A DNA stretch of 64,000 nucleotides. It comes from Candidatus Adlerbacteria bacterium. Its GTDB lineage: Bacteria; Patescibacteriota; Minisyncoccia; Phycocordibacterales; SBAW01. The number at the start of each line of letters is the position of its first letter. Positions within the stretch are counted from its first letter, which is position 1. The stretch spans positions 3,548 through 67,547 of the forward strand of contig JBAXLB010000003.1 in NCBI GenBank assembly GCA_037135035.1, written 5' to 3'. Position numbers and translations under genes: made by a program. The notes under the pieces are model-generated. The model had not been told where the DNA came from. It did not search any database and saw nothing but the letters and a program-made list of their open reading frames with translations. Positions 2,991 to 55,947 of the stretch are shown one piece after another.

Positions 2991-3009
2991 CGTGTGCAGG
3001 GTTGAACTG

Positions 3010-13834: not shown

Positions 13835-14965
13835 CTACTGATACTGAATAAAGCTTGGGGCCGGTGTGAGCTTCAAAACTTCTTCCTGTGTCATCAAACG
13901 AGTGCTTGGCGGCTTGATGTCATTTTTATAGAAGAGTTTAAAACCCGTAAACTGCACTGGTTGGAGATTTTCAAAATTGGTATACGTACCAACTTTTTTA
14001 GCAGGACCTCCCCACCCGTCCATGTCCATCACAATTTGTACTTCAGGGAGCGGGGTAATATTTTTATAATTTGTCACCATGCCTTGCGTGTAGCGGTGTA
14101 CAAACAATACTTTTGGCGGCAAGTTATTGTCGCGCACTAACTTTGCCAAATAGTTTGCAACCCAGTTTATGTCTGTCGCGTCGACGGTACCCACAACCGT
14201 GCCCGGCTTGGCGCCTGTCTTCATTGAAAACTCGGGGTCAATAGCCAGGTGCACGTTTGGCATTTTTAGATAGTTCTCAAGCAGCGGGACTTCTATCTGG
14301 TTAGTACTTAAACCCACCTGCACTTCAAGTATCACAATACCGTGCACTTGTTCGGCCAACTCGAGTGCATGGTCGACTTGGCTGTCGGGCATACGCAAAC
14401 GGTACTTGCCGTCTTTGCCGGCGCTCCCCTGTGCTGTTACGGCAATATAGTCGATAGCAGGGACAACTGGTGTTGCAGGGTCGGCCGCACGCCATTGTGC
14501 TAGCGTGTCGTTTAGTTTTGAAATCATAACGTCGGCAGGATATTCGCCAAGCACGCCCATACCTTTAGAGTAAAAGTTACCGTAGTACGCAACAATGCGG
14601 TTAAACGGCAGCAACGCGCCATAGTTTGGGTATGTTGTTTTTACCGGCCATGGTTGTTTTTTAACAGTTGTGGTACCCGTGGTGGTGCCGGTCAAAAAAT
14701 ATTCGTACCACGATGTTGATGTTGCAACGTGCGCGAGCGAAAGTAACTTAAGGTCGTATGCATGCGTGTCGAGTACTGGCGGTGGAACCACCTTCACGCT
14801 TACCGGAGTAGTTGATGCGTGCGCATCGTCCAAGCCTCCATAATGCACTGCAAACAAACTGCTGTAGCCAACCAAATACACCAACGCCAAACTAGCGACA
14901 CACCCAAGAGCTGCCATAGCAACATACACGACAGCTTTTTTTATATTTTTTTGTTTTTTTGCCAT
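13835..14965 (-). CDS. membrane-anchored hypothetical protein (possible glycoside-hydrolase-like TIM-barrel)
   Basis: start taken at MAKKQKNIKK; single N-terminal TM; no firm motif. Confidence 0.35.
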   Translation of the reverse strand: MAKKQKNIKKAVVYVAMAALGCVASLALVYLVGYSSLFAVHYGGLDDAHASTTPVSVKVVPPPVLDTHAYDLKLLSLAHVATSTSWYEYFLTGTTTGTTTVKKQPWPVKTTYPNYGALLPFNRIVAYYGNFYSKGMGVLGEYPADVMISKLNDTLAQWRAADPATPVVPAIDYIAVTAQGSAGKDGKYRLRMPDSQVDHALELAEQVHGIVILEVQVGLSTNQIEVPLLENYLKMPNVHLAIDPEFSMKTGAKPGTVVGTVDATDINWVANYLAKLVRDNNLPPKVLFVHRYTQGMVTNYKNITPLPEVQIVMDMDGWGGPAKKVGTYTNFENLQPVQFTGFKLFYKNDIKPPSTRLMTQEEVLKLTPAPSFIQYQ

Positions 14966-15234
14966 ACTGCCTTCTTTCCCACTATAGCAGACTTCACTAA
15001 CATGAGTTTTTGCGCGCGCGACATCTTTTTTACTTCTGCTTCCCGTTTTGAAGCCACACTGCGGTTTGCACATTCTTCGGTATATACTATTTTCTTGGCT
15101 TTTCGTGCGCGCGTATAGTGGCTACCAATCCCCTGCTGGTGTTCAGCAAAACGCCGCGCAACATCGGTCGCGATACCTGTGTACAGAGAGCCGTCTTTGC
15201 ACTCTAAAATGTAGACGAAATACATGTGCACCAA
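14941..15234 (-). CDS. GIY-YIG nuclease family protein (small, stand-alone)
   Basis: YFVYILECKDGSLYTGIATDVARRFAEHQ = GIY-(10)-YIG, with downstream R and E. Confidence 0.75.
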   Translation of the reverse strand: MVHMYFVYILECKDGSLYTGIATDVARRFAEHQQGIGSHYTRARKAKKIVYTEECANRSVASKREAEVKKMSRAQKLMLVKSAIVGKKAVWQKNKKI

Positions 15235-15576
15235 ATTACTCTTTCCAGATTTTTATAACGCACATGGGAGCCGGGCAAATATAGAGAGTTTTCGACTTCC
15301 TATCATAAAACCATCCGACCCAAAAGTCGTACCAGAGAAAACTAAAACTGATTTTCATAATTTCATTCTACCCGAGAATTAAATATCCCCCGCAGTATGC
15401 GGGGGGGGGTGTCGAACTCACAAGGTTTCAACGTTGGTGGCCTTTTACAGCTGCTATAACAGGCACCTGCTTCTAAGATGCCCGCCCATCGTGTTGCCCC
15501 ACAAGTTCGGCGTCTTGGTTATAGCAAAAGAGGAGAGGATTGAAAAGAAGGCTGTTTCGGTGTATTTTGGAACTGT

Positions 15577-15624
15577 ATTGCCAGCCTCGCCCGTAGGACG
15601 GTCTACGGCCGAGGGATCGTCTAA
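15577..15624 (+). repeat. direct repeat A: tRNA-Gln 5'-end copy with 31-nt hairpin insertion
   Basis: attgccag[cctcgcccgtaggacggtctacggccgaggg]atcgtctaa; near-identical copy at 15860-15908. Confidence 0.8.
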
Positions 15625-15629
15625 ATCAT

Positions 15630-15908
15630 ATGCATTACGTATATGTTTTGAAAAGTAAGAAGGACGGCAATCTGTATATAGGTTGTACTGGTGATATTAC
15701 AAAACGAATAGAGCAGCATAAGAACGGAAAGGTGCGAGCGACAAAAAGTAGGTTGCCGGTTGAGTTGATCTATAAGGAAGAATATAGTGATAAGTATGAA
15801 GCGTTTTATCAGGAACGTTTCTACAAAACTCCAAAAGGCAAAAGAGAGTTGAAGGAAAAATTGCCAGCCTCGCCCGTAGGACGGAGCTACGGCCGAGGGA
15901 TCGTCTAA
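15630..15908 (+). CDS. GIY-YIG nuclease family protein (second copy; 3' end runs into repeat B)
   Basis: MHYVYVLKSKKDGNLYIGCTGDITKRIEQHK motif; a degenerate copy of this gene's 3' end lies at about 15520-15576. Confidence 0.7.
   Translation: MHYVYVLKSKKDGNLYIGCTGDITKRIEQHKNGKVRATKSRLPVELIYKEEYSDKYEAFYQERFYKTPKGKRELKEKLPASPVGRSYGRGIV
15860..15908 (+). repeat. direct repeat B (see repeat A)
   Basis: 49 nt, 1-2 differences from repeat A. Confidence 0.8.
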
Positions 15909-15944
15909 TGTAATAATTGGACAATAAGTTCACGAAGTGAACAT

Positions 15945-16016
15945 TGCCAGATCGTCTAATGGTAGGACAACGGACTCTGAATCCGTTTATCTTGGTTCGA
16001 GTCCAAGTCTGGCAGC
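15945..16016 (+). tRNA. tRNA-Gln (anticodon CTG)
   Basis: U1-A72 acceptor TGCCAGA/TCTGGCA, 3-bp D stem, anticodon arm ACGGA-CTCTGAA-TCCGT, T-loop TTCGAGT. Confidence 0.85.
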
Positions 16017-16092
16017 AAATTTTTAGAGCTTATAAATCAATGGGATTTTAGAAAAGAGGACTTAGACATCAGAACTAGTATAAAATAAACCT

Positions 16093-16587
16093 ATGGGAAT
16101 AATATCGCACGACAGCGAAACGCCCGCGCAGGGCAAACAAGTAATATCCGCATGTGCATTTATCCACCACAATTTTGACGGCGTAGAAAAAGTGTTTATG
16201 CCCAAACGCGCAGATACAAAAAAGTTTTTGCCGAGCGTGTTTGAAATCCCCGGTGGCCACATAGACTTCGGCGAAGACGTTGTTGAAGGATTAAAGCGCG
16301 AAGTAATGGAAGAACATGGCATGCATATTTCTGTCGGTGACCCGTTTGCCGTATTTACCTACATAAACCCTATAAAAGGCTCCCACTCTATTGAAGCGGT
16401 TTACTTTGCTACCTTTACCGACCCACTGGAAAATATTTGCATCAACCCCGAAGACCACTCCGAATATAAATGGGTCGCAGAGAGTGAACTAGCTTCTGTA
16501 TCTTCCGCTCCAATTACAGATGCAGAATTTGCAAACGTTAAAAAAGGTTTTGAACTTTTACGCGGTGAAGCACATAACTTTGGTTAA
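16093..16587 (+). CDS. NUDIX hydrolase
   Basis: Nudix box GGHIDFGEDVVEGLKREVMEEHGM. Confidence 0.85.
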   Translation: MGIISHDSETPAQGKQVISACAFIHHNFDGVEKVFMPKRADTKKFLPSVFEIPGGHIDFGEDVVEGLKREVMEEHGMHISVGDPFAVFTYINPIKGSHSIEAVYFATFTDPLENICINPEDHSEYKWVAESELASVSSAPITDAEFANVKKGFELLRGEAHNFG

Positions 16588-16598
16588 ATTAAAACAAG

Positions 16599-17273
16599 CT
16601 AGCTTCCGTAACGCTTAAGAAAATTCTCTCGGCTTATTGAAGCAAACGCTTTCTTTTCTTTTTCGTCTACTTCGCTAACCTCAAAACCCATTTTCTTCAT
16701 GATGTAGGGATGTTCGTAAATGATCCAAGACTGCCCAGTTACTCTTTCAACCCCTGCGAACAACGGGTCATTTTTAATTTTCGCGGCTAGCATATGCAAG
16801 CCTTCTTCAAACAACTGCAACATCTCCATCGGTTTTTTGGTAAACATCATTGGGATATGAATCCCAATATCTTTTTCCTCAATATGGTACGACAACGCTT
16901 CGTTAACGGAGGCCCAATCGCTTTGTTCAACTAAATTTTCACGCAATTTAGTCTCCAAATCTTCAGGAGATATTTTATCAACGAGAAATACATTTATCTG
17001 TTTGGTTATCTCTTTAGGAAGAGCTTCAACACTGCTGTAAGGAAAAGTTTTTAATCTCTCTATCAAAGCTTCAAATTCTTGGGCGCGTTCAGGAAAAAGA
17101 GCCTGTCCGCGCTGTCTAAAACGCTCTGTTATATATGTTGCCGTTGAAGCTATATCCTCTCTATTTGGAGCTTCCAATACCATACGCATAACAGACTCTT
17201 CGATACGTTTCGACATTGCTTCTACCATACCAACTTCTTTCTGGTCAGGTCGGGCAACTCCTTCGATTTTCAT
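16599..17273 (-). CDS. hypothetical protein (AT-rich gene)
   Basis: 224-aa ORF, about 42% GC, charged/helical, no recognisable motif. Confidence 0.4.
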   Translation of the reverse strand: MKIEGVARPDQKEVGMVEAMSKRIEESVMRMVLEAPNREDIASTATYITERFRQRGQALFPERAQEFEALIERLKTFPYSSVEALPKEITKQINVFLVDKISPEDLETKLRENLVEQSDWASVNEALSYHIEEKDIGIHIPMMFTKKPMEMLQLFEEGLHMLAAKIKNDPLFAGVERVTGQSWIIYEHPYIMKKMGFEVSEVDEKEKKAFASISRENFLKRYGS

Positions 17274-34987: not shown

Positions 34988-35569
34988 TTACCTGTCATAA
35001 AAGCGTTGTGTTACGGACGTTTGAAAGTTAAATACTGATTTTTGCACACCCTTAACCACGACATAGCCAGAAATAAGCATGACAACGCGGGGCTGTATAT
35101 TGTCTGTGTTAAATGCACCGAGGCCAAAAAATTTAAGGGATTTCACAAAAATCTCTGGCGAGGTAATGCTTGCATACGACGCTCCTCCGTCCGTTGAGCG
35201 CAAAATACACCCGACATTGTTTGGGCAGCCAATAGTGCCAAACTGGTAGACCGTTTCGTTGCCAGTTGCTGCCAAAAACGCAAACTGTGTGGAACCGGCG
35301 CTGGTGCAGTCGAGCGTTGCCGTAAGTGTGCCTGCGCCGCAATGGTAATTTATGCCGGTGCGAATAGCGCGCGACATGCTGTCTATCGCCGAGTCAAAGT
35401 TGTTAGTTGCCGATGACAACAATTCTGCTCTGCGGTTCGCTTCCGAAAGCGAAAGGAGTGCACCAAGCGCAACAACCATCACCGTGCTAAATATAGCAAC
35501 CGACACGAGCATTTCTATAAGTGTAAAACCCCTCGGTCGTAGTCCTATGGGTGAGACTCGGTTGTTCAT
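34988..35569 (-). CDS. type IV pilin-like protein
   Basis: RGFTLIEMLVSVAIF. Confidence 0.75.
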   Translation of the reverse strand: MNNRVSPIGLRPRGFTLIEMLVSVAIFSTVMVVALGALLSLSEANRRAELLSSATNNFDSAIDSMSRAIRTGINYHCGAGTLTATLDCTSAGSTQFAFLAATGNETVYQFGTIGCPNNVGCILRSTDGGASYASITSPEIFVKSLKFFGLGAFNTDNIQPRVVMLISGYVVVKGVQKSVFNFQTSVTQRFYDR

Positions 35570-52260: not shown

Positions 52261-53421
52261 TTACTTTATTGCCTTTGCAACTGCTTGTACGACACCTTTG
52301 TCGAACGGTCCCGGGACGATTTTGTCGGCCGTTGGTTTTTTAACCAAGGCAGCCAAGTTTTTGGCAGCTTTCAACTTCATGTCGTCGGTTATTTTTGTCA
52401 CGCGATTGTCGAGTGCGCCGCGGAATACGCCTGGGAACACAAGTGAATTATTTATCTGGTTTGGGTAGTCGCTGCGGCCGGTACCAATTACTGCCGCCCC
52501 TCCCTTCTTTGCATCTTCGGGCATAATTTCGGGCGTCGGGTTTGCCATTGCAAATACAATCGCTTTTTTTGCCATCAACTGCACATCTTTTACAGTCATT
52601 AAACCGGGACCCGACACACCAAGCACAACGTCGGCATCTTTGAGAGCGTCTTGTAGTGTGCCGTTTATATTCCGCGGGTTTGTCATTGCAGCAAGTTCTT
52701 TTTTGTGGCCAGAAAGGTCAGAGCGGTCTTTGGAAAGTGTTCCTTTGCGGTCGAGCATAATAACGTCTGTAACGCCTGCCTTCAAAAGCAATTTGGTAAC
52801 TGCAGTACCTGCAGCGCCCGCCCCTGCAACAACGACGCGGAGAGAATTAAATTTTTTGCCAACAACTTTTGATGCATTTATAAGCGCAGCAAGTACAGCA
52901 ATTGCGGTGCCGTGCTGGTCGTCGTGCATCACGGGGATGTCGAGCGCAGCTTTTACGCGGTCTTCAATTTCAAAACAATTTGGCGCGGCAAAATCTTCCA
53001 AGTTAATGCCGCCGAATGCGGGTGCAATATTAATTATTGTTTTTACAATTTCGTCGACATTTTGTGTGTCCAAGACAATCGGAAATGCATCGACATTTGC
53101 AAAGGCTTTAAACAACGCGGCCTTTCCTTCCATCACGGGCAGTGCACCCAAGGCACCGATGTTGCCAAGCCCTAACACTGCCGAGCCGTCAGAGATAACC
53201 GCGATCATCTTTCCTTTAATAGTATAGTCGCGGGCAAGTTTTGGGTTTTTTGCAACAAGCATAGAAACCGCCGCAACCCCTGGTGTGTATACAAGCGACA
53301 TGTCGGCCCGGCTTTTAATAGCTACAGCTGGAGCAATGCGAATTTTCCCGCCCAGTTTTTTGTGTAATGCAATGGCACGTGCTGCAGTGTCGTTTTTCTT
53401 CATATCTCGCGAGTATATCAC
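52261..53421 (-). CDS. NAD(P)-dependent malic enzyme
   Basis: 386 aa; malic enzyme N-terminal and NAD-binding domains (GAGAAG). Confidence 0.85.
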   Translation of the reverse strand: MIYSRDMKKNDTAARAIALHKKLGGKIRIAPAVAIKSRADMSLVYTPGVAAVSMLVAKNPKLARDYTIKGKMIAVISDGSAVLGLGNIGALGALPVMEGKAALFKAFANVDAFPIVLDTQNVDEIVKTIINIAPAFGGINLEDFAAPNCFEIEDRVKAALDIPVMHDDQHGTAIAVLAALINASKVVGKKFNSLRVVVAGAGAAGTAVTKLLLKAGVTDVIMLDRKGTLSKDRSDLSGHKKELAAMTNPRNINGTLQDALKDADVVLGVSGPGLMTVKDVQLMAKKAIVFAMANPTPEIMPEDAKKGGAAVIGTGRSDYPNQINNSLVFPGVFRGALDNRVTKITDDMKLKAAKNLAALVKKPTADKIVPGPFDKGVVQAVAKAIK

Positions 53422-53441
53422 AGGGCTTATATACTAGATGT

Positions 53442-55784
53442 ATGGATCTACGCGAACCCATTTCCGAGCACTTCCGGCTAACAAACATTCAAAAAACTGC
53501 CCTGGGGAAACTAGGTATAAAAACACTACGCGACCTGCTGTACCATTTCCCCTTTCGTTACGAACAGGCCGGGAGCGAAACAAGTACGGGCGAGCTGCAA
53601 GTAGGCCAGGAAGTTACGGTTGTAGGAGTTTTGGAAAAACTCACAACAAAAAAGTCGTGGAAAAGTAGAGTCCCGATGTCAGACGGATATCTGCGCGACC
53701 AAGGCGGCCGCGTAAAATTGATGTGGTTTAACCAGCCCTATATTGCAAAAATGTATGCCGATGGCACGCGCGTAAAAGCAACGGGTAAAGTCACGGGCTC
53801 GCCCGGCAAACTGTATTTAGCAAACCCCCAGCTTGAGAAAATTTCCGCGACGGAAGAGACACTGTTCGTTTCGCAGAAACCAAGCTCGCCTCAACGCGGA
53901 AAATCTCCTGCTGAAGATTTTCCTATGTCCGGCGCCGTCGCACCTACCAACGTTTCGGACGAACTTGTTTCTACTTCACTCGATGCCGCCACGACGCAGG
54001 CGAAGTCGGTTGCGGAGCCGAAGATCGACGCAGAGACTTCGCCGCAGTCGTCTTTCACTAACCTCTTTGCCCAGTACCCAGAAAGCCGCGGGGTGACATC
54101 ACTATGGTTCCGCCACGCGATACAAAAAATACTTGCCACAGGAATTGTCGAACAAGTAGAAGACCCACTACCGCCAGACATGCTCAAACGCTACAACTTA
54201 CCGACGCTAGGCAGTGCTCTTGTGTGGATGCACATACCGGAAAAATTAAAAGATGCCGACGCGGCACGCAAACGTTTTGCATTTGAGGAAGTGTTTATGA
54301 TCCAGCTCGAGCGCGGTATTGAACGTAAAAAACAATCACACGAAAAAAGTTTTGCGGTCGACGCACCAAAAAAAGCTGTTGATGACTTTATCGGTACCTT
54401 CCCCTTTACCGCAACAGGTGCACAGCACAAAGCAATTGAAGCAATTTTACACGACATGCGCAGCGGCCACCCTATGTCGCGCCTGCTTGAAGGCGACGTA
54501 GGTTCGGGCAAAACGGCAGTTGCGGCAACGGCCGCCTACGCCGCGGTTCGTACGCGGCCCGAAAACCAGAAGTTCGGCACGCTGCAGGTTGCCTACATGG
54601 CCCCGACCGAAATTTTAGCAAAGCAGCATTTTGAGTCGTTTATAAAATATTTTGAAACGTTCCCTATTAACATCGGGCTTATTACCGGCTCGGGTTGTTT
54701 TAAATTCCCGTCAAAAATTGGGCGCGGTAAGTCGACCGCGATTTCCCGCACGCAACTACTTAAATGGGTAGCTGCGGGCGAGATCCCTGTTGTTATTGGC
54801 ACACATGCACTTATTCAAAAGTCGGTACAGTTTAAACACCTGGCACTTGTCGTGATAGACGAACAACATCGCTTTGGTACCGCCCAAAGACAAAAGCTTG
54901 CGACTAAAGAAAAGCGGCCCTCGGCCGTAGCCGGACGGGCGAGGCTCCCCCACCTGTTGTCGATGACAGCCACCCCAATCCCGCGTACCTTGGCACTTAC
55001 TATATATGGAGACCTGGATTTGACACTGCTGGACGAAATGCCCGCGGGACGTAAAAAAATTATTACAGAAATTGTAAAACCCGCCGGGCGTGCGCAAGCA
55101 TACGCAAAAATCCACGAACAGCTAGCCGAAGGGCGGCAGGCATATGTTATCTGCCCCCGCATTGACGAGCCGGACCCTGACAAAGCATTTGCATTGATGG
55201 CAAAGTCTGTCACTGCAGAGGCGAAACGTTTAAAGAAAGACGTCTTTCAAAATTATGAAATTGCTATTTTGCACAGCAAAATGACGCCGAAGGAAAAAGA
55301 CGAAACGATGCAAAAGTTTGCGGCGCACGAGATAGATATTTTGGTTGCAACGTCAGTTGTTGAAGTGGGCGTCAACGTCCCCAACGCCACGATGATTTTT
55401 ATCGAAGGCGCCGAGCGCTTTGGCTTGGCACAGCTCCACCAGTTGCGCGGGCGCGTTGTGCGCAGCAACTACCAAGCCTATTGTTTTGTCTGCCCTGAAA
55501 GCCGTGGCGAACATACGCTTGCGCGGCTCAAGGCATTGGCCACTGCAAAAAATGGTTTTGAACTTGCCGAACAAGACTTGTTGCAGCGGGGGCCCGGTGA
55601 ACTTTCAGGCCGCAAACAGTGGGGCATCTCTGACATCGGCATGGAAGCACTAAAGAATTTAAAACTTGTGGAAGCCGCCCGCACCGAGGCACTAGCGGTT
55701 GTAGAGAAAGATGAACATCTACAAAAATACCCTCTGTTGCAGCATGCACTTTTTGCACGGGCGCAGACCCTACACTTTGAGTAG
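53442..55784 (+). CDS. recG: ATP-dependent DNA helicase RecG
   Basis: wedge/OB domain, helicase motifs GDVGSGKT and DEQHRFG, C-terminal helicase domain; start placed at MDLREPIS. Confidence 0.9.
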   Translation: MDLREPISEHFRLTNIQKTALGKLGIKTLRDLLYHFPFRYEQAGSETSTGELQVGQEVTVVGVLEKLTTKKSWKSRVPMSDGYLRDQGGRVKLMWFNQPYIAKMYADGTRVKATGKVTGSPGKLYLANPQLEKISATEETLFVSQKPSSPQRGKSPAEDFPMSGAVAPTNVSDELVSTSLDAATTQAKSVAEPKIDAETSPQSSFTNLFAQYPESRGVTSLWFRHAIQKILATGIVEQVEDPLPPDMLKRYNLPTLGSALVWMHIPEKLKDADAARKRFAFEEVFMIQLERGIERKKQSHEKSFAVDAPKKAVDDFIGTFPFTATGAQHKAIEAILHDMRSGHPMSRLLEGDVGSGKTAVAATAAYAAVRTRPENQKFGTLQVAYMAPTEILAKQHFESFIKYFETFPINIGLITGSGCFKFPSKIGRGKSTAISRTQLLKWVAAGEIPVVIGTHALIQKSVQFKHLALVVIDEQHRFGTAQRQKLATKEKRPSAVAGRARLPHLLSMTATPIPRTLALTIYGDLDLTLLDEMPAGRKKIITEIVKPAGRAQAYAKIHEQLAEGRQAYVICPRIDEPDPDKAFALMAKSVTAEAKRLKKDVFQNYEIAILHSKMTPKEKDETMQKFAAHEIDILVATSVVEVGVNVPNATMIFIEGAERFGLAQLHQLRGRVVRSNYQAYCFVCPESRGEHTLARLKALATAKNGFELAEQDLLQRGPGELSGRKQWGISDIGMEALKNLKLVEAARTEALAVVEKDEHLQKYPLLQHALFARAQTLHFE

Positions 55785-55827: not shown

Positions 55828-55901
55828 GTGCCTGTAGCTCAGTTGGTTAGAGCTCCGAGCTTATACCTCGGCGGTCCCTGGTTCGAGTCCAGGCAGGCAC
55901 A
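55828..55901 (+). tRNA. tRNA-Ile (anticodon TAT, UAU)
   Basis: GTGCCTG acceptor, anticodon arm CCGAG-CTTATAC-CTCGG, T-loop TTCGAGT. Confidence 0.8.
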
Positions 55902-55947
55902 CAAAAGTTACAAAGACCTGCCCTGCGGCAGGTTTTGTACTTTTGTG
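55902..55947 (+). terminator. long hairpin (terminator-like) immediately after tRNA-Ile
   Basis: caaaagttacaaagacctgcc-ctgc-ggcaggttttgtacttttg. Confidence 0.5.

Follow-up and report, generated by a model that had tools for sequence, protein, structure and literature searches.

The locus described here lies in a 64-kb stretch of Candidatus Adlerbacteria DNA (the window, i.e. the complete analysed DNA) and combines two small genes for GIY-YIG nucleases with an intact tRNA-Gln(CTG) gene and two displaced copies of the tRNA 5′ end, each of which is broken by a short palindromic element. The nuclease gene on the plus strand, located between the displaced tRNA copies, is termed Type-A and that on the minus strand Type-B. 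L-numbers (L002, L195 etc.) designate genome loci fetched from relatives. The features of the locus and two diverged palindrome copies elsewhere in the window are the following:

14941–15234, minus strand: Type-B GIY-YIG gene (Pfam PF01541, E = 1.1e-17), likely start at the ATG at 15225
15577–15624, plus strand: fragment F1, copy of tRNA-Gln nucleotides (nt) −2 to 15 (ATTGCCAG / ATCGTCTAA), with the palindrome after nt 6
15585–15615, plus strand: palindromic element copy 1, 31 nt, arms CCTCGCCCGTAG and CTACGGCCGAGG plus one G
15630–15908, plus strand: Type-A GIY-YIG nuclease gene, 92 amino acids (aa) (Pfam, E = 1.6e-14)
15860–15927, plus strand: fragment F2, copy of tRNA-Gln nt −2 to about 28, with the palindrome after nt 6
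15868–15899, plus strand: palindromic element copy 2, 32 nt, different from copy 1 in the loop alone (AG, not T)
15928–15942, no strand assigned: short inverted repeat GTTCACGAAGTGAAC within the 36 nt that separate F2 from the tRNA, scored as terminator-like on the minus strand
15945–16016, plus strand: intact tRNA-Gln(CTG) (ARAGORN; Rfam, 64.9 bits)
35530–35557, plus strand: diverged palindromic element copy in a prepilin-like open reading frame (ORF; 34988–35569, minus strand)
54918–54945, plus strand: diverged palindromic element copy in a RecG-like ORF (53367–55784)

Both GIY-YIG genes, the adjoining tRNA gene and the near-identical repeats had been recognized in a preliminary description of this DNA and were borne out by the present analysis. 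The repeats at 15577–15624 (48 nt) and 15860–15908 (49 nt, corresponding to the first 49 nt of F2) are both composed of ATTGCCAG, the 31/32-nt palindrome and ATCGTCTAA, and differ solely in the hairpin loop. The uninterrupted sequence ATTGCCAGATCGTCTAA occurs once in the window, at the start of the tRNA (15943–15959; shuffle expectation 0), in agreement with the earlier view of the repeat as the first 15 nt of tRNA-Gln split by a hairpin. The repeat is, however, less a tRNA mimic, as it had been called, than a tRNA-derived segment in the strict sense, i.e. a true copy of the tRNA 5′ end into which a separate mobile palindrome was inserted. The exact 17-nt palindrome arm is found at just these two sites in the 64 kb (shuffle expectation 0.05). 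Copy 1 has a C·C mismatch at stem position 6 and is oriented in reverse relative to the majority form described below. F1 ends at tRNA nt 15, five bases ahead of the ATG of the Type-A gene, and F2, which remains tRNA-like until about nt 28, carries a small indel in the D-loop (TAATG[taataatt]GGACAA). The order is thus fragment with hairpin, nuclease gene, fragment with hairpin, 36 nt and tRNA, with a repeat unit of 283 nt. Independent assemblies from four other samples of this population reproduce the locus base for base, except for one G-run indel in one of them; an assembly artefact or a collapsed repeat, considered at the outset, is thereby ruled out. Rfam recognized the tRNA as the sole RNA family between 14500 and 16700. 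Two earlier claims had to be abandoned. A supposed degenerate copy of the 3′ end of the Type-A gene at 15520–15576 attains a local alignment score of 19 compared to 16 ± 2 for shuffled sequences, and 46 of 500 shuffles reach 19. Moreover, the two nuclease genes do not constitute tandem cassettes; their products share 26% identity and belong to different subfamilies, and the genes lie on opposite strands.

The GIY-YIG family model PF01541 matches the two proteins of the window with 54.4 and 64.5 bits (cut-off 22.6). Residues 1–78 of the Type-A protein correspond to the conserved domain, and residues 79–92 (LPASPVGRSYGRGIV) are encoded by F2 together with its hairpin. In the AlphaFold2 model of the 92-aa protein (predicted local distance difference test score, pLDDT, 83), residues 1–80 are confidently placed, while residues 81–92 remain below 50; the hairpin-encoded 14-residue tail is thus predicted to be disordered. 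The best sequence match among known structures is 1zg2 (E = 2.6e-9), and a Foldseek search with the model retrieved 1zg2, 7cq2, 7cq3 and 4xm5. The nearest fold is that of the UPF0213 protein BH0048, followed by Slx1 and then by the catalytic domain of I-TevI. Slx1 and the bacterial UPF0213 proteins (BH0048, EF2693) are the best matches in both sequence and fold and share the catalytic residues. Homologues of the Type-A protein (n = 101) stem nearly all from Patescibacteria and are mostly 78–85 aa long. Tyr5, Tyr16, Arg26, His30 and Glu62 are invariant among 19–29 aligned homologues, and the ratio of non-synonymous to synonymous substitution rates (dN/dS) of the ORF is 0.05–0.12, with synonymous sites near saturation. 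Both findings indicate that the ORF is maintained by purifying selection. On the basis of these sequence and model data, the Type-A family is assigned to the GIY-YIG superfamily as a Slx1/UPF0213-like member with predicted nuclease activity. In eukaryotes, Slx1 acts together with Slx4 on branched DNA; for the UPF0213 proteins we know of no established function and of no linkage to tRNA genes. A sister clade of the nuclease family (L039, L046, L047, L050, L051, L052 and L062, at about position 3000 in most of them) is accompanied by neither tRNA nor hairpin. Its ORF is bracketed by 15-bp inverted repeats, ACCCGCCAAAAyTTT and AAAATTTAGGCGGGT, the stop codon lying within the right one, and the unit of about 300 bp looks like a transposon.

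The juxtaposition of nuclease and tRNA gene is not a peculiarity of the window. Sixty-three genome loci were fetched from the Type-A family alignment and their tRNAs were called individually by ARAGORN. In 41 of them the ORF ends inside, or at most 12 nt before, a tRNA-Gln (CTG or TTG) or tRNA-Glu gene on the same strand; in four further loci the tRNA is 58–217 nt away or lost at the contig end. An overlap between ORF and tRNA exists in 25 of these 41 loci and amounts to 14–15 nt, 21 nt (the Glu forms) or 43 nt. The 18 Gln loci with a 14–15-nt overlap use the TAA of the tRNA D-loop as stop codon of the ORF. The protein tails HCQIV-stop, HCGIV-stop and HWEIV-stop, as well as NWEIV, translate CAT TGC CAG ATC GTC TAA, i.e. 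the triplet preceding tRNA-Gln and the first 15 nt of the tRNA; in the relatives, the nuclease gene takes its five final codons and its TAA stop from these 15 nt. A few homologues read deeper into the tRNA. Upstream neighbours are conserved as well, dnaX preceding the cassette at tRNA-Gln(TTG) in 18 loci and ftsX preceding that at tRNA-Gln(CTG) in 16 loci. A more distant nuclease clade (ca. 45% identity) is associated with tRNA-Ser(GCT/CGA) (L142 700–1200; L179 150–700, minus strand) in the arrangement GGAGGCGTG, hairpin, GGCTGAG, ORF and tRNA-Ser, in which the fragment is split at nt 9/10. The hosts of the cassette are therefore mainly tRNA-Gln, but also tRNA-Glu and tRNA-Ser genes. In the nuclease tree, CTG, TTG and Glu loci are intermixed. 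The earlier proposal of a cassette directed to the tRNA-Gln 5′ region holds in so far as the link is general among the relatives; the repeated insertion inferred for the window itself is less convincing than unequal recombination (see below).

The displaced tRNA fragment recurs together with the gene. A palindrome (scored within 130 nt upstream of the ATG of the ORF) is located 20–70 nt before the ATG in 44 of the 63 loci and lies there within a copied tRNA 5′ end. This copy comprises the first 12–28 nt of the tRNA and is always broken by the palindrome, as exemplified by L005 with cattgccagatcgtc, hairpin and ctaatggtaggacaac ahead of the ATG. The fragment type tracks the local tRNA, being Gln-type at Gln, Glu-type at Glu and Ser-type at Ser loci. 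Its nt 1–12 are identical to those of the resident tRNA in 26 of 50 loci and differ by 1–3 nt in most others, compared to 3.0 nt on average for random pairs of these tRNAs; the few larger differences are due to tandem hairpins. Even rare variants, GTCATC and ATCTGC among them, are shared by a fragment and its own tRNA. In L002, L136, L090 and L032, the acceptor stem of the fragment is unlike that of the functional tRNA. A comparison of fragment nt 1–12 with nt 13–25 revealed no clear asymmetry, which would be expected if only the first part were refreshed upon each insertion. A displaced tRNA 3′ half downstream of the cassette is absent in 68 of 70 loci. The usual cassette thus duplicates the 5′ part only; the exceptions, L020 and L004, contain whole old tRNA copies downstream of the cassette.

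The palindrome consists of a 12-bp stem formed by CCTCGGCCGTAG and CTACGGGCGAGG and a loop of 1–40 nt; in the cassettes, the element measures 26–54 nt. In the majority form it is inserted forward between tRNA nt 12 and 13. The minority form, found in the window and in L132, L014, L019, L033, L091, L159, L180 and L195, is reversed and resides within nt 4–7 of the acceptor strand. These orientations are based on the hairpin copies of the loci and of the metagenome contigs, as the forward and reverse labels in the tree are unreliable, the two patterns differing by one base per arm. Isolated 48-nt pieces with the hairpin core fold no better than shuffled sequences (z of about −1.4 to −2.4), and the significance of the hairpin is therefore derived from its conservation and not from folding energy. 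The search for further hairpin copies that the preliminary description had recommended was productive. Besides the two diverged copies in the recG-like and prepilin-like ORFs of the window, metagenome contigs, scanned for the hairpin alone, yielded at least 120 loci, with 130 copies among the matches listed, to which the following counts also refer. In this nuclease-blind sample, some 40% of the 130 copies sit in tRNA-Gln/Glu fragments, and most of these are followed by the nuclease gene 11–30 nt further and by the tRNA about 255 nt further. At unique, unrelated sites with full flanks, both flanking bases are C in 68 of 69 cases, with little other specificity. The insert length is divisible by three (27, 39 or 54 nt) at 47 of 71 unique, unrelated sites; 38 of these 47 copies, compared to none of the other 24, reside in ORFs of at least 150 aa (p = 7e-12). 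The palindrome is hence a separate dispersed element that also occurs in frame inside protein-coding genes. In the window, the copy in the RecG-like ORF forms a 27-nt in-frame insert within the DEAD domain, and that in the prepilin-like ORF encodes part of the leader peptide (MNNRVSPIGLRPRG|FTLIEMLV). The orthologous long ORFs of L150 (9794–9831) and L182 (2725–2762) carry the hairpin at the same position with flanks of 81% identity, and in-frame copies can therefore persist over substantial divergence. It had been considered beforehand that the repeat might be a generic REP (repetitive extragenic palindromic) or MITE (miniature inverted-repeat transposable element) sequence spread over the genome. 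This applies to the hairpin core with its dispersed copies but neither to the composite repeat nor to the link between nuclease and tRNA. A phage origin of the hairpin was rejected on the basis of zero matches in a viral contig collection. A target preference for D-arm sequence was likewise discarded, as dispersed copies need just C, a requirement that does not account for the regular hits on the tRNA fragment. The hairpin may protect the displaced fragment from cutting or recombination or, alternatively, may be the nuclease's substrate and passenger.

The presence or absence of the cassette was compared, as suggested earlier, in related genomes. The cassette of the window itself is present in all four other samples. 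The conserved site between ftsX and tRNA-Gln was found in both occupied and empty forms. Within one lineage with 71–77% identical FtsX orthologues, L197/L198, L200 and L201 contain ftsX, 20–30 nt and tRNA-Gln without cassette, whereas L195 and L029 are occupied, with differing hairpin positions. Such a presence/absence polymorphism at an otherwise conserved site is a hallmark of free-standing homing endonucleases. Empty sites were obtained by the FtsX route alone; a search via the downstream NUDIX gene gave orthologues (ca. 75% identity) that were not syntenic. Decayed cassettes are common, and duplication products occur as well. Internal deletions that keep the ATG and the last codons of the ORF occur in L110 (compared with L121), L112, L127, L134 and L181. 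L071 contains two tandem 98-nt units and L134 one, and L082/L120 display the architecture of the window with the second ORF deleted. Old tRNA-Gln copies beside a functional replacement were detected in L170 (1–620, minus strand), L020 (3250–3520), L027 (3240–3480) and L004 (3330–3450); their D-arm and T-arm are interrupted by one to three palindromic inserts, and they suggest serial tRNA replacement at the site. Together with the mixed nuclease tree and the odd acceptor stems, they point to horizontal or ectopic movement. A third form of the site, reached via the same FtsX orthologues, was observed in L202 (2415–2700) and L203 (2216–2420), where the D-loop of the resident tRNA-Gln is split by a segment with a new complete tRNA-Gln, leaving the 5′ piece of the old tRNA upstream and its 3′ piece downstream. 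The new tRNA has a different acceptor stem and is flanked by direct repeats of about 25 nt containing another palindrome (GGCCCGCTTTAGCGGGG).

With moderate confidence we interpret the observed architecture, its recurrence, the empty and occupied sites, the purifying selection, the decayed and duplicated cassettes and a hairpin that disperses independently as traces of a selfish, homing-endonuclease-like cassette at the 5′ edge of Patescibacteria tRNA genes, of which the window contains a locally duplicated copy. The cassette is built from three parts: a displaced tRNA 5′ copy (12–28 nt) broken by a 26–54-nt palindrome, a gene for a 78–85-aa GIY-YIG protein that consists of the Slx1/UPF0213-like catalytic domain only, and the intact tRNA, whose first 15 nt often code for the five C-terminal residues of the nuclease, with the D-loop TAA as stop. 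Upon entry into a tRNA gene, the cassette presumably recreated the 5′ part of the tRNA, which therefore stays functional. We infer that copying into empty sites is started by a nuclease break in the tRNA 5′ region or in the hairpin. Nuclease gene and tRNA are probably co-transcribed, the whole cassette and the tRNA forming one transcript that starts at the promoter serving the tRNA itself. Recombinational exchange among the tRNA 5′ segments might keep the fragment identical to the resident tRNA and, by the same route, generate tandem duplications and internal deletions. The doubling in the window would then reflect unequal recombination, by which the 283-nt unit was duplicated and the tRNA-proximal ORF copy was later lost. 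This scenario is preferred because the same architecture exists in L082/L120 and copy-number variants are documented by L071 and L134.

Several points weigh against this interpretation. Neither Pfam, nor the protein lengths of 78–85 aa, nor the AlphaFold2 model indicate a DNA-binding domain joined to the catalytic domain of the Type-A family. This is the main obstacle to a classical homing endonuclease and would allow for a structure-specific activity on the hairpin. The nearest folds, as judged from the model, appear to be structure-specific nucleases (Slx1, UPF0213) rather than I-TevI. Furthermore, the occupied allele keeps an intact tRNA, and a nuclease reading only the tRNA sequence would cut its own locus. 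Even in comparisons of the most similar cassettes the synonymous sites are saturated, and the neighbouring genes are conserved; therefore much of the distribution could be old and vertical instead of reflecting active homing. The compared empty and occupied genomes include no close pair that differs in the cassette alone. Finally, cleavage, transcription and transfer are, for the cassette, predictions from sequence data.

The dispersal of the hairpin permits a reversed assignment of roles, in which mobility resides primarily in the hairpin, with the GIY-YIG protein as its helper nuclease, similar to REP sequences and their REP-associated tyrosine transposases (RAYTs), and in which the tRNA-linked copy represents a protected master locus. 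Hairpins in tRNA fragments and genes would then mark nuclease nicks next to C. We regard this as rather unlikely, although several observations speak for it. The hairpin stem is nearly invariant across lineages in which the synonymous sites of the ORF are saturated. The hairpin entered independently in forward orientation at nt 12/13 and in reverse at nt 4–7 of tRNA-Gln and nt 9/10 of tRNA-Ser, and the related genomes L116 and L170 differ in its position and orientation. The flanking C residues at the dispersed sites, the relation of the nuclease fold to the structure-specific Slx1 and the high proportion of listed hairpins located in tRNA fragments next to the nuclease gene despite nuclease-blind sampling also fit. 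However, GIY-YIG enzymes act by hydrolysis, without a covalent DNA intermediate, which precludes strand transfer by the nuclease alone; moreover, none of about 70 dispersed hairpins among the matches listed adjoins a nuclease gene, and no excision footprints were seen. A related and somewhat more doubtful version is a two-part mobile system, in which the tRNA-fused Slx1-like nuclease nicks beside C and the nicks are patched with 27–54-nt hairpin copies. If correct, it would account for the hairpin in every displaced fragment, with the polarity of the nicked strand, and for the in-frame scatter of hairpins in genes such as those for RecG and pilin; this would be a form of transposition that needs no transposase, the nuclease being kept safe and expressed via an essential tRNA gene.

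The strong purifying selection on the ORF, the dnaX and ftsX synteny kept over many lineages and the wide distribution of the UPF0213 family in bacteria would also suit a domesticated host gene for repair or RNA/DNA processing that is co-transcribed with tRNA-Gln, fragments and hairpins being neutral by-products of a recombination-prone spot. Such a role is improbable in view of the absence of the gene from the same site in close relatives, the common internal deletions or premature stops among the ORFs and the movement of the gene between tRNA-Gln(CTG), tRNA-Gln(TTG), tRNA-Glu and tRNA-Ser genes, each time with the matching fragment. In addition, a neutral 12–28-nt fragment would drift away from the tRNA while synonymous sites become saturated. 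By far the least probable explanation is an insertion of another type, either an integrase-type element for which the tRNA serves as attachment site or the remnant of a group I intron accompanied by a homing endonuclease. Although tRNA-derived direct repeats lie on both sides of the ORF, reminiscent of attL/attR, and although group I introns are present in Patescibacterial tRNAs (bioRxiv 10.1101/2025.07.03.662931), the GIY-YIG gene is the sole ORF between the repeats and thus no integrase is encoded, and the tRNA is duplicated at its 5′ and not at its 3′ end. No intron or ribozyme family was detected at E ≤ 1 in 14500–16700 and the tRNA is uninterrupted. The mentioned preprint, which locates the introns in the anticodon loop, contains no mention of GIY-YIG, Gln or hairpins (bioRxiv 10.1101/2025.07.03.662931). 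Membership among tRNA-targeting integrative elements is accordingly rejected for want of a recombinase gene and of a tRNA 3′ end duplication, and that among group I introns for want of a ribozyme core in a continuous tRNA.

Among characterized systems, the selfish cassette favoured here most closely recalls SegB, a free-standing GIY-YIG homing endonuclease in the tRNA cluster of T-even phages, which cuts inside tRNA genes and drives tandem amplification of the segB+tRNA unit by means of microhomology that the 3′ end of segB shares with the tRNA 5′ end (PMC13096335). Across phages, the association of SegB with tRNAs is statistically strong (PMC13096335). The available part of that report mentions no hairpin element, displaced tRNA 5′ fragment or stop codon inside a tRNA (PMC13096335). 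SegB resembles the Patescibacteria cassette in the location of a GIY-YIG gene directly beside tRNA genes and is its closest experimental precedent. It differs in being larger, in possessing a DNA-binding part and in being phage-encoded, while the present protein comprises 78–92 aa and belongs to a Patescibacteria chromosome. In fungal mitochondria, free-standing GIY-YIG genes insert into a host gene and carry a replacement for the displaced gene end; the Allomyces atp6 element is such a case and lies near mobile double-hairpin elements. The mitochondrial elements and the cassette have in common a nuclease gene in or at an essential gene, the duplication of a part such that this gene remains intact, a displaced fragment left behind and mobile hairpins nearby. 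In the mitochondrial elements, however, the 3′ end of an organellar protein gene is duplicated, in the cassette the 5′ end of a bacterial tRNA gene into which the ORF reads.

With respect to the hairpin, the Rickettsia palindromic elements (RPEs) are comparable as short dispersed palindromes in frame inside protein-coding genes, a property which the present hairpin shares, but they are larger (ca. 100–150 bp versus 27–54 nt) and to our knowledge have no linked enzyme. The REP/RAYT systems likewise tightly link one protein gene to palindrome copies. RAYT is, however, an HUH/Y1 transposase flanked by inverted REPs, whereas the cassette encodes a GIY-YIG hydrolase and has a single upstream palindrome within a tRNA fragment; lacking an HUH/Y1 transposase, it is not a member of this class. 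Literature searches on GIY-YIG and tRNA-Gln, Patescibacteria, YhbQ, palindromic elements of the candidate phyla radiation and tRNA insertions in Parcubacteria gave no description of the cassette or the hairpin; the cassette is widespread in Patescibacteria and apparently undescribed. As GIY-YIG genes beside tRNAs reshape tRNA loci in phages, the cassette would represent a chromosomal counterpart in a large, poorly understood bacterial group. It unites three unusual properties, a stop codon borrowed from a tRNA, a duplicated tRNA 5′ end kept identical and a conserved mobile hairpin that is always included. As a system it offers access to the targeting of a 78-aa catalytic domain without DNA-binding domain and to the spread of short palindromes. 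For the annotation of Patescibacterial genomes, hairpin-split tRNA fragments and hairpin-encoded protein inserts of 9–18 residues have to be taken into account.

The Type-B gene is a second nuclease repeatedly associated with the same tRNA. Its relatives are found 24–330 nt downstream of tRNA-Gln in L002, L082/L120, L027, L170, L159, L148 and L181, so that the tRNA often has a GIY-YIG gene on either side. Positions of such relatives are 3455–3688 in L002, 7776–8021 in L082, 3872–4105 in L027, 199–2 in L170, 1548–1784 in L159 and 1853–1617 in L181. The window is an exception as its Type-B gene lies upstream of tRNA-Gln and is inverted. The end of the gene (14941–15073), including its stop, extends into the start region of the following ORF on this strand (412 aa, no Pfam match), so that this nuclease gene, too, is tightly packed against its neighbour.

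Two further observations concern other parts of the window. On the minus strand of 15380–15530, a gene-free stretch between both GIY-YIG genes, the sequence folds well (−54 kcal/mol, z = −2.8) and terminates in a strong terminator-like hairpin (15405–15387). This stretch gave no Rfam match and resembles nothing in any of the fetched loci; it may be a small RNA. At 55828–55902, the window contains a tRNA-Ile with the anticodon TAT, which is uncommon in bacteria.

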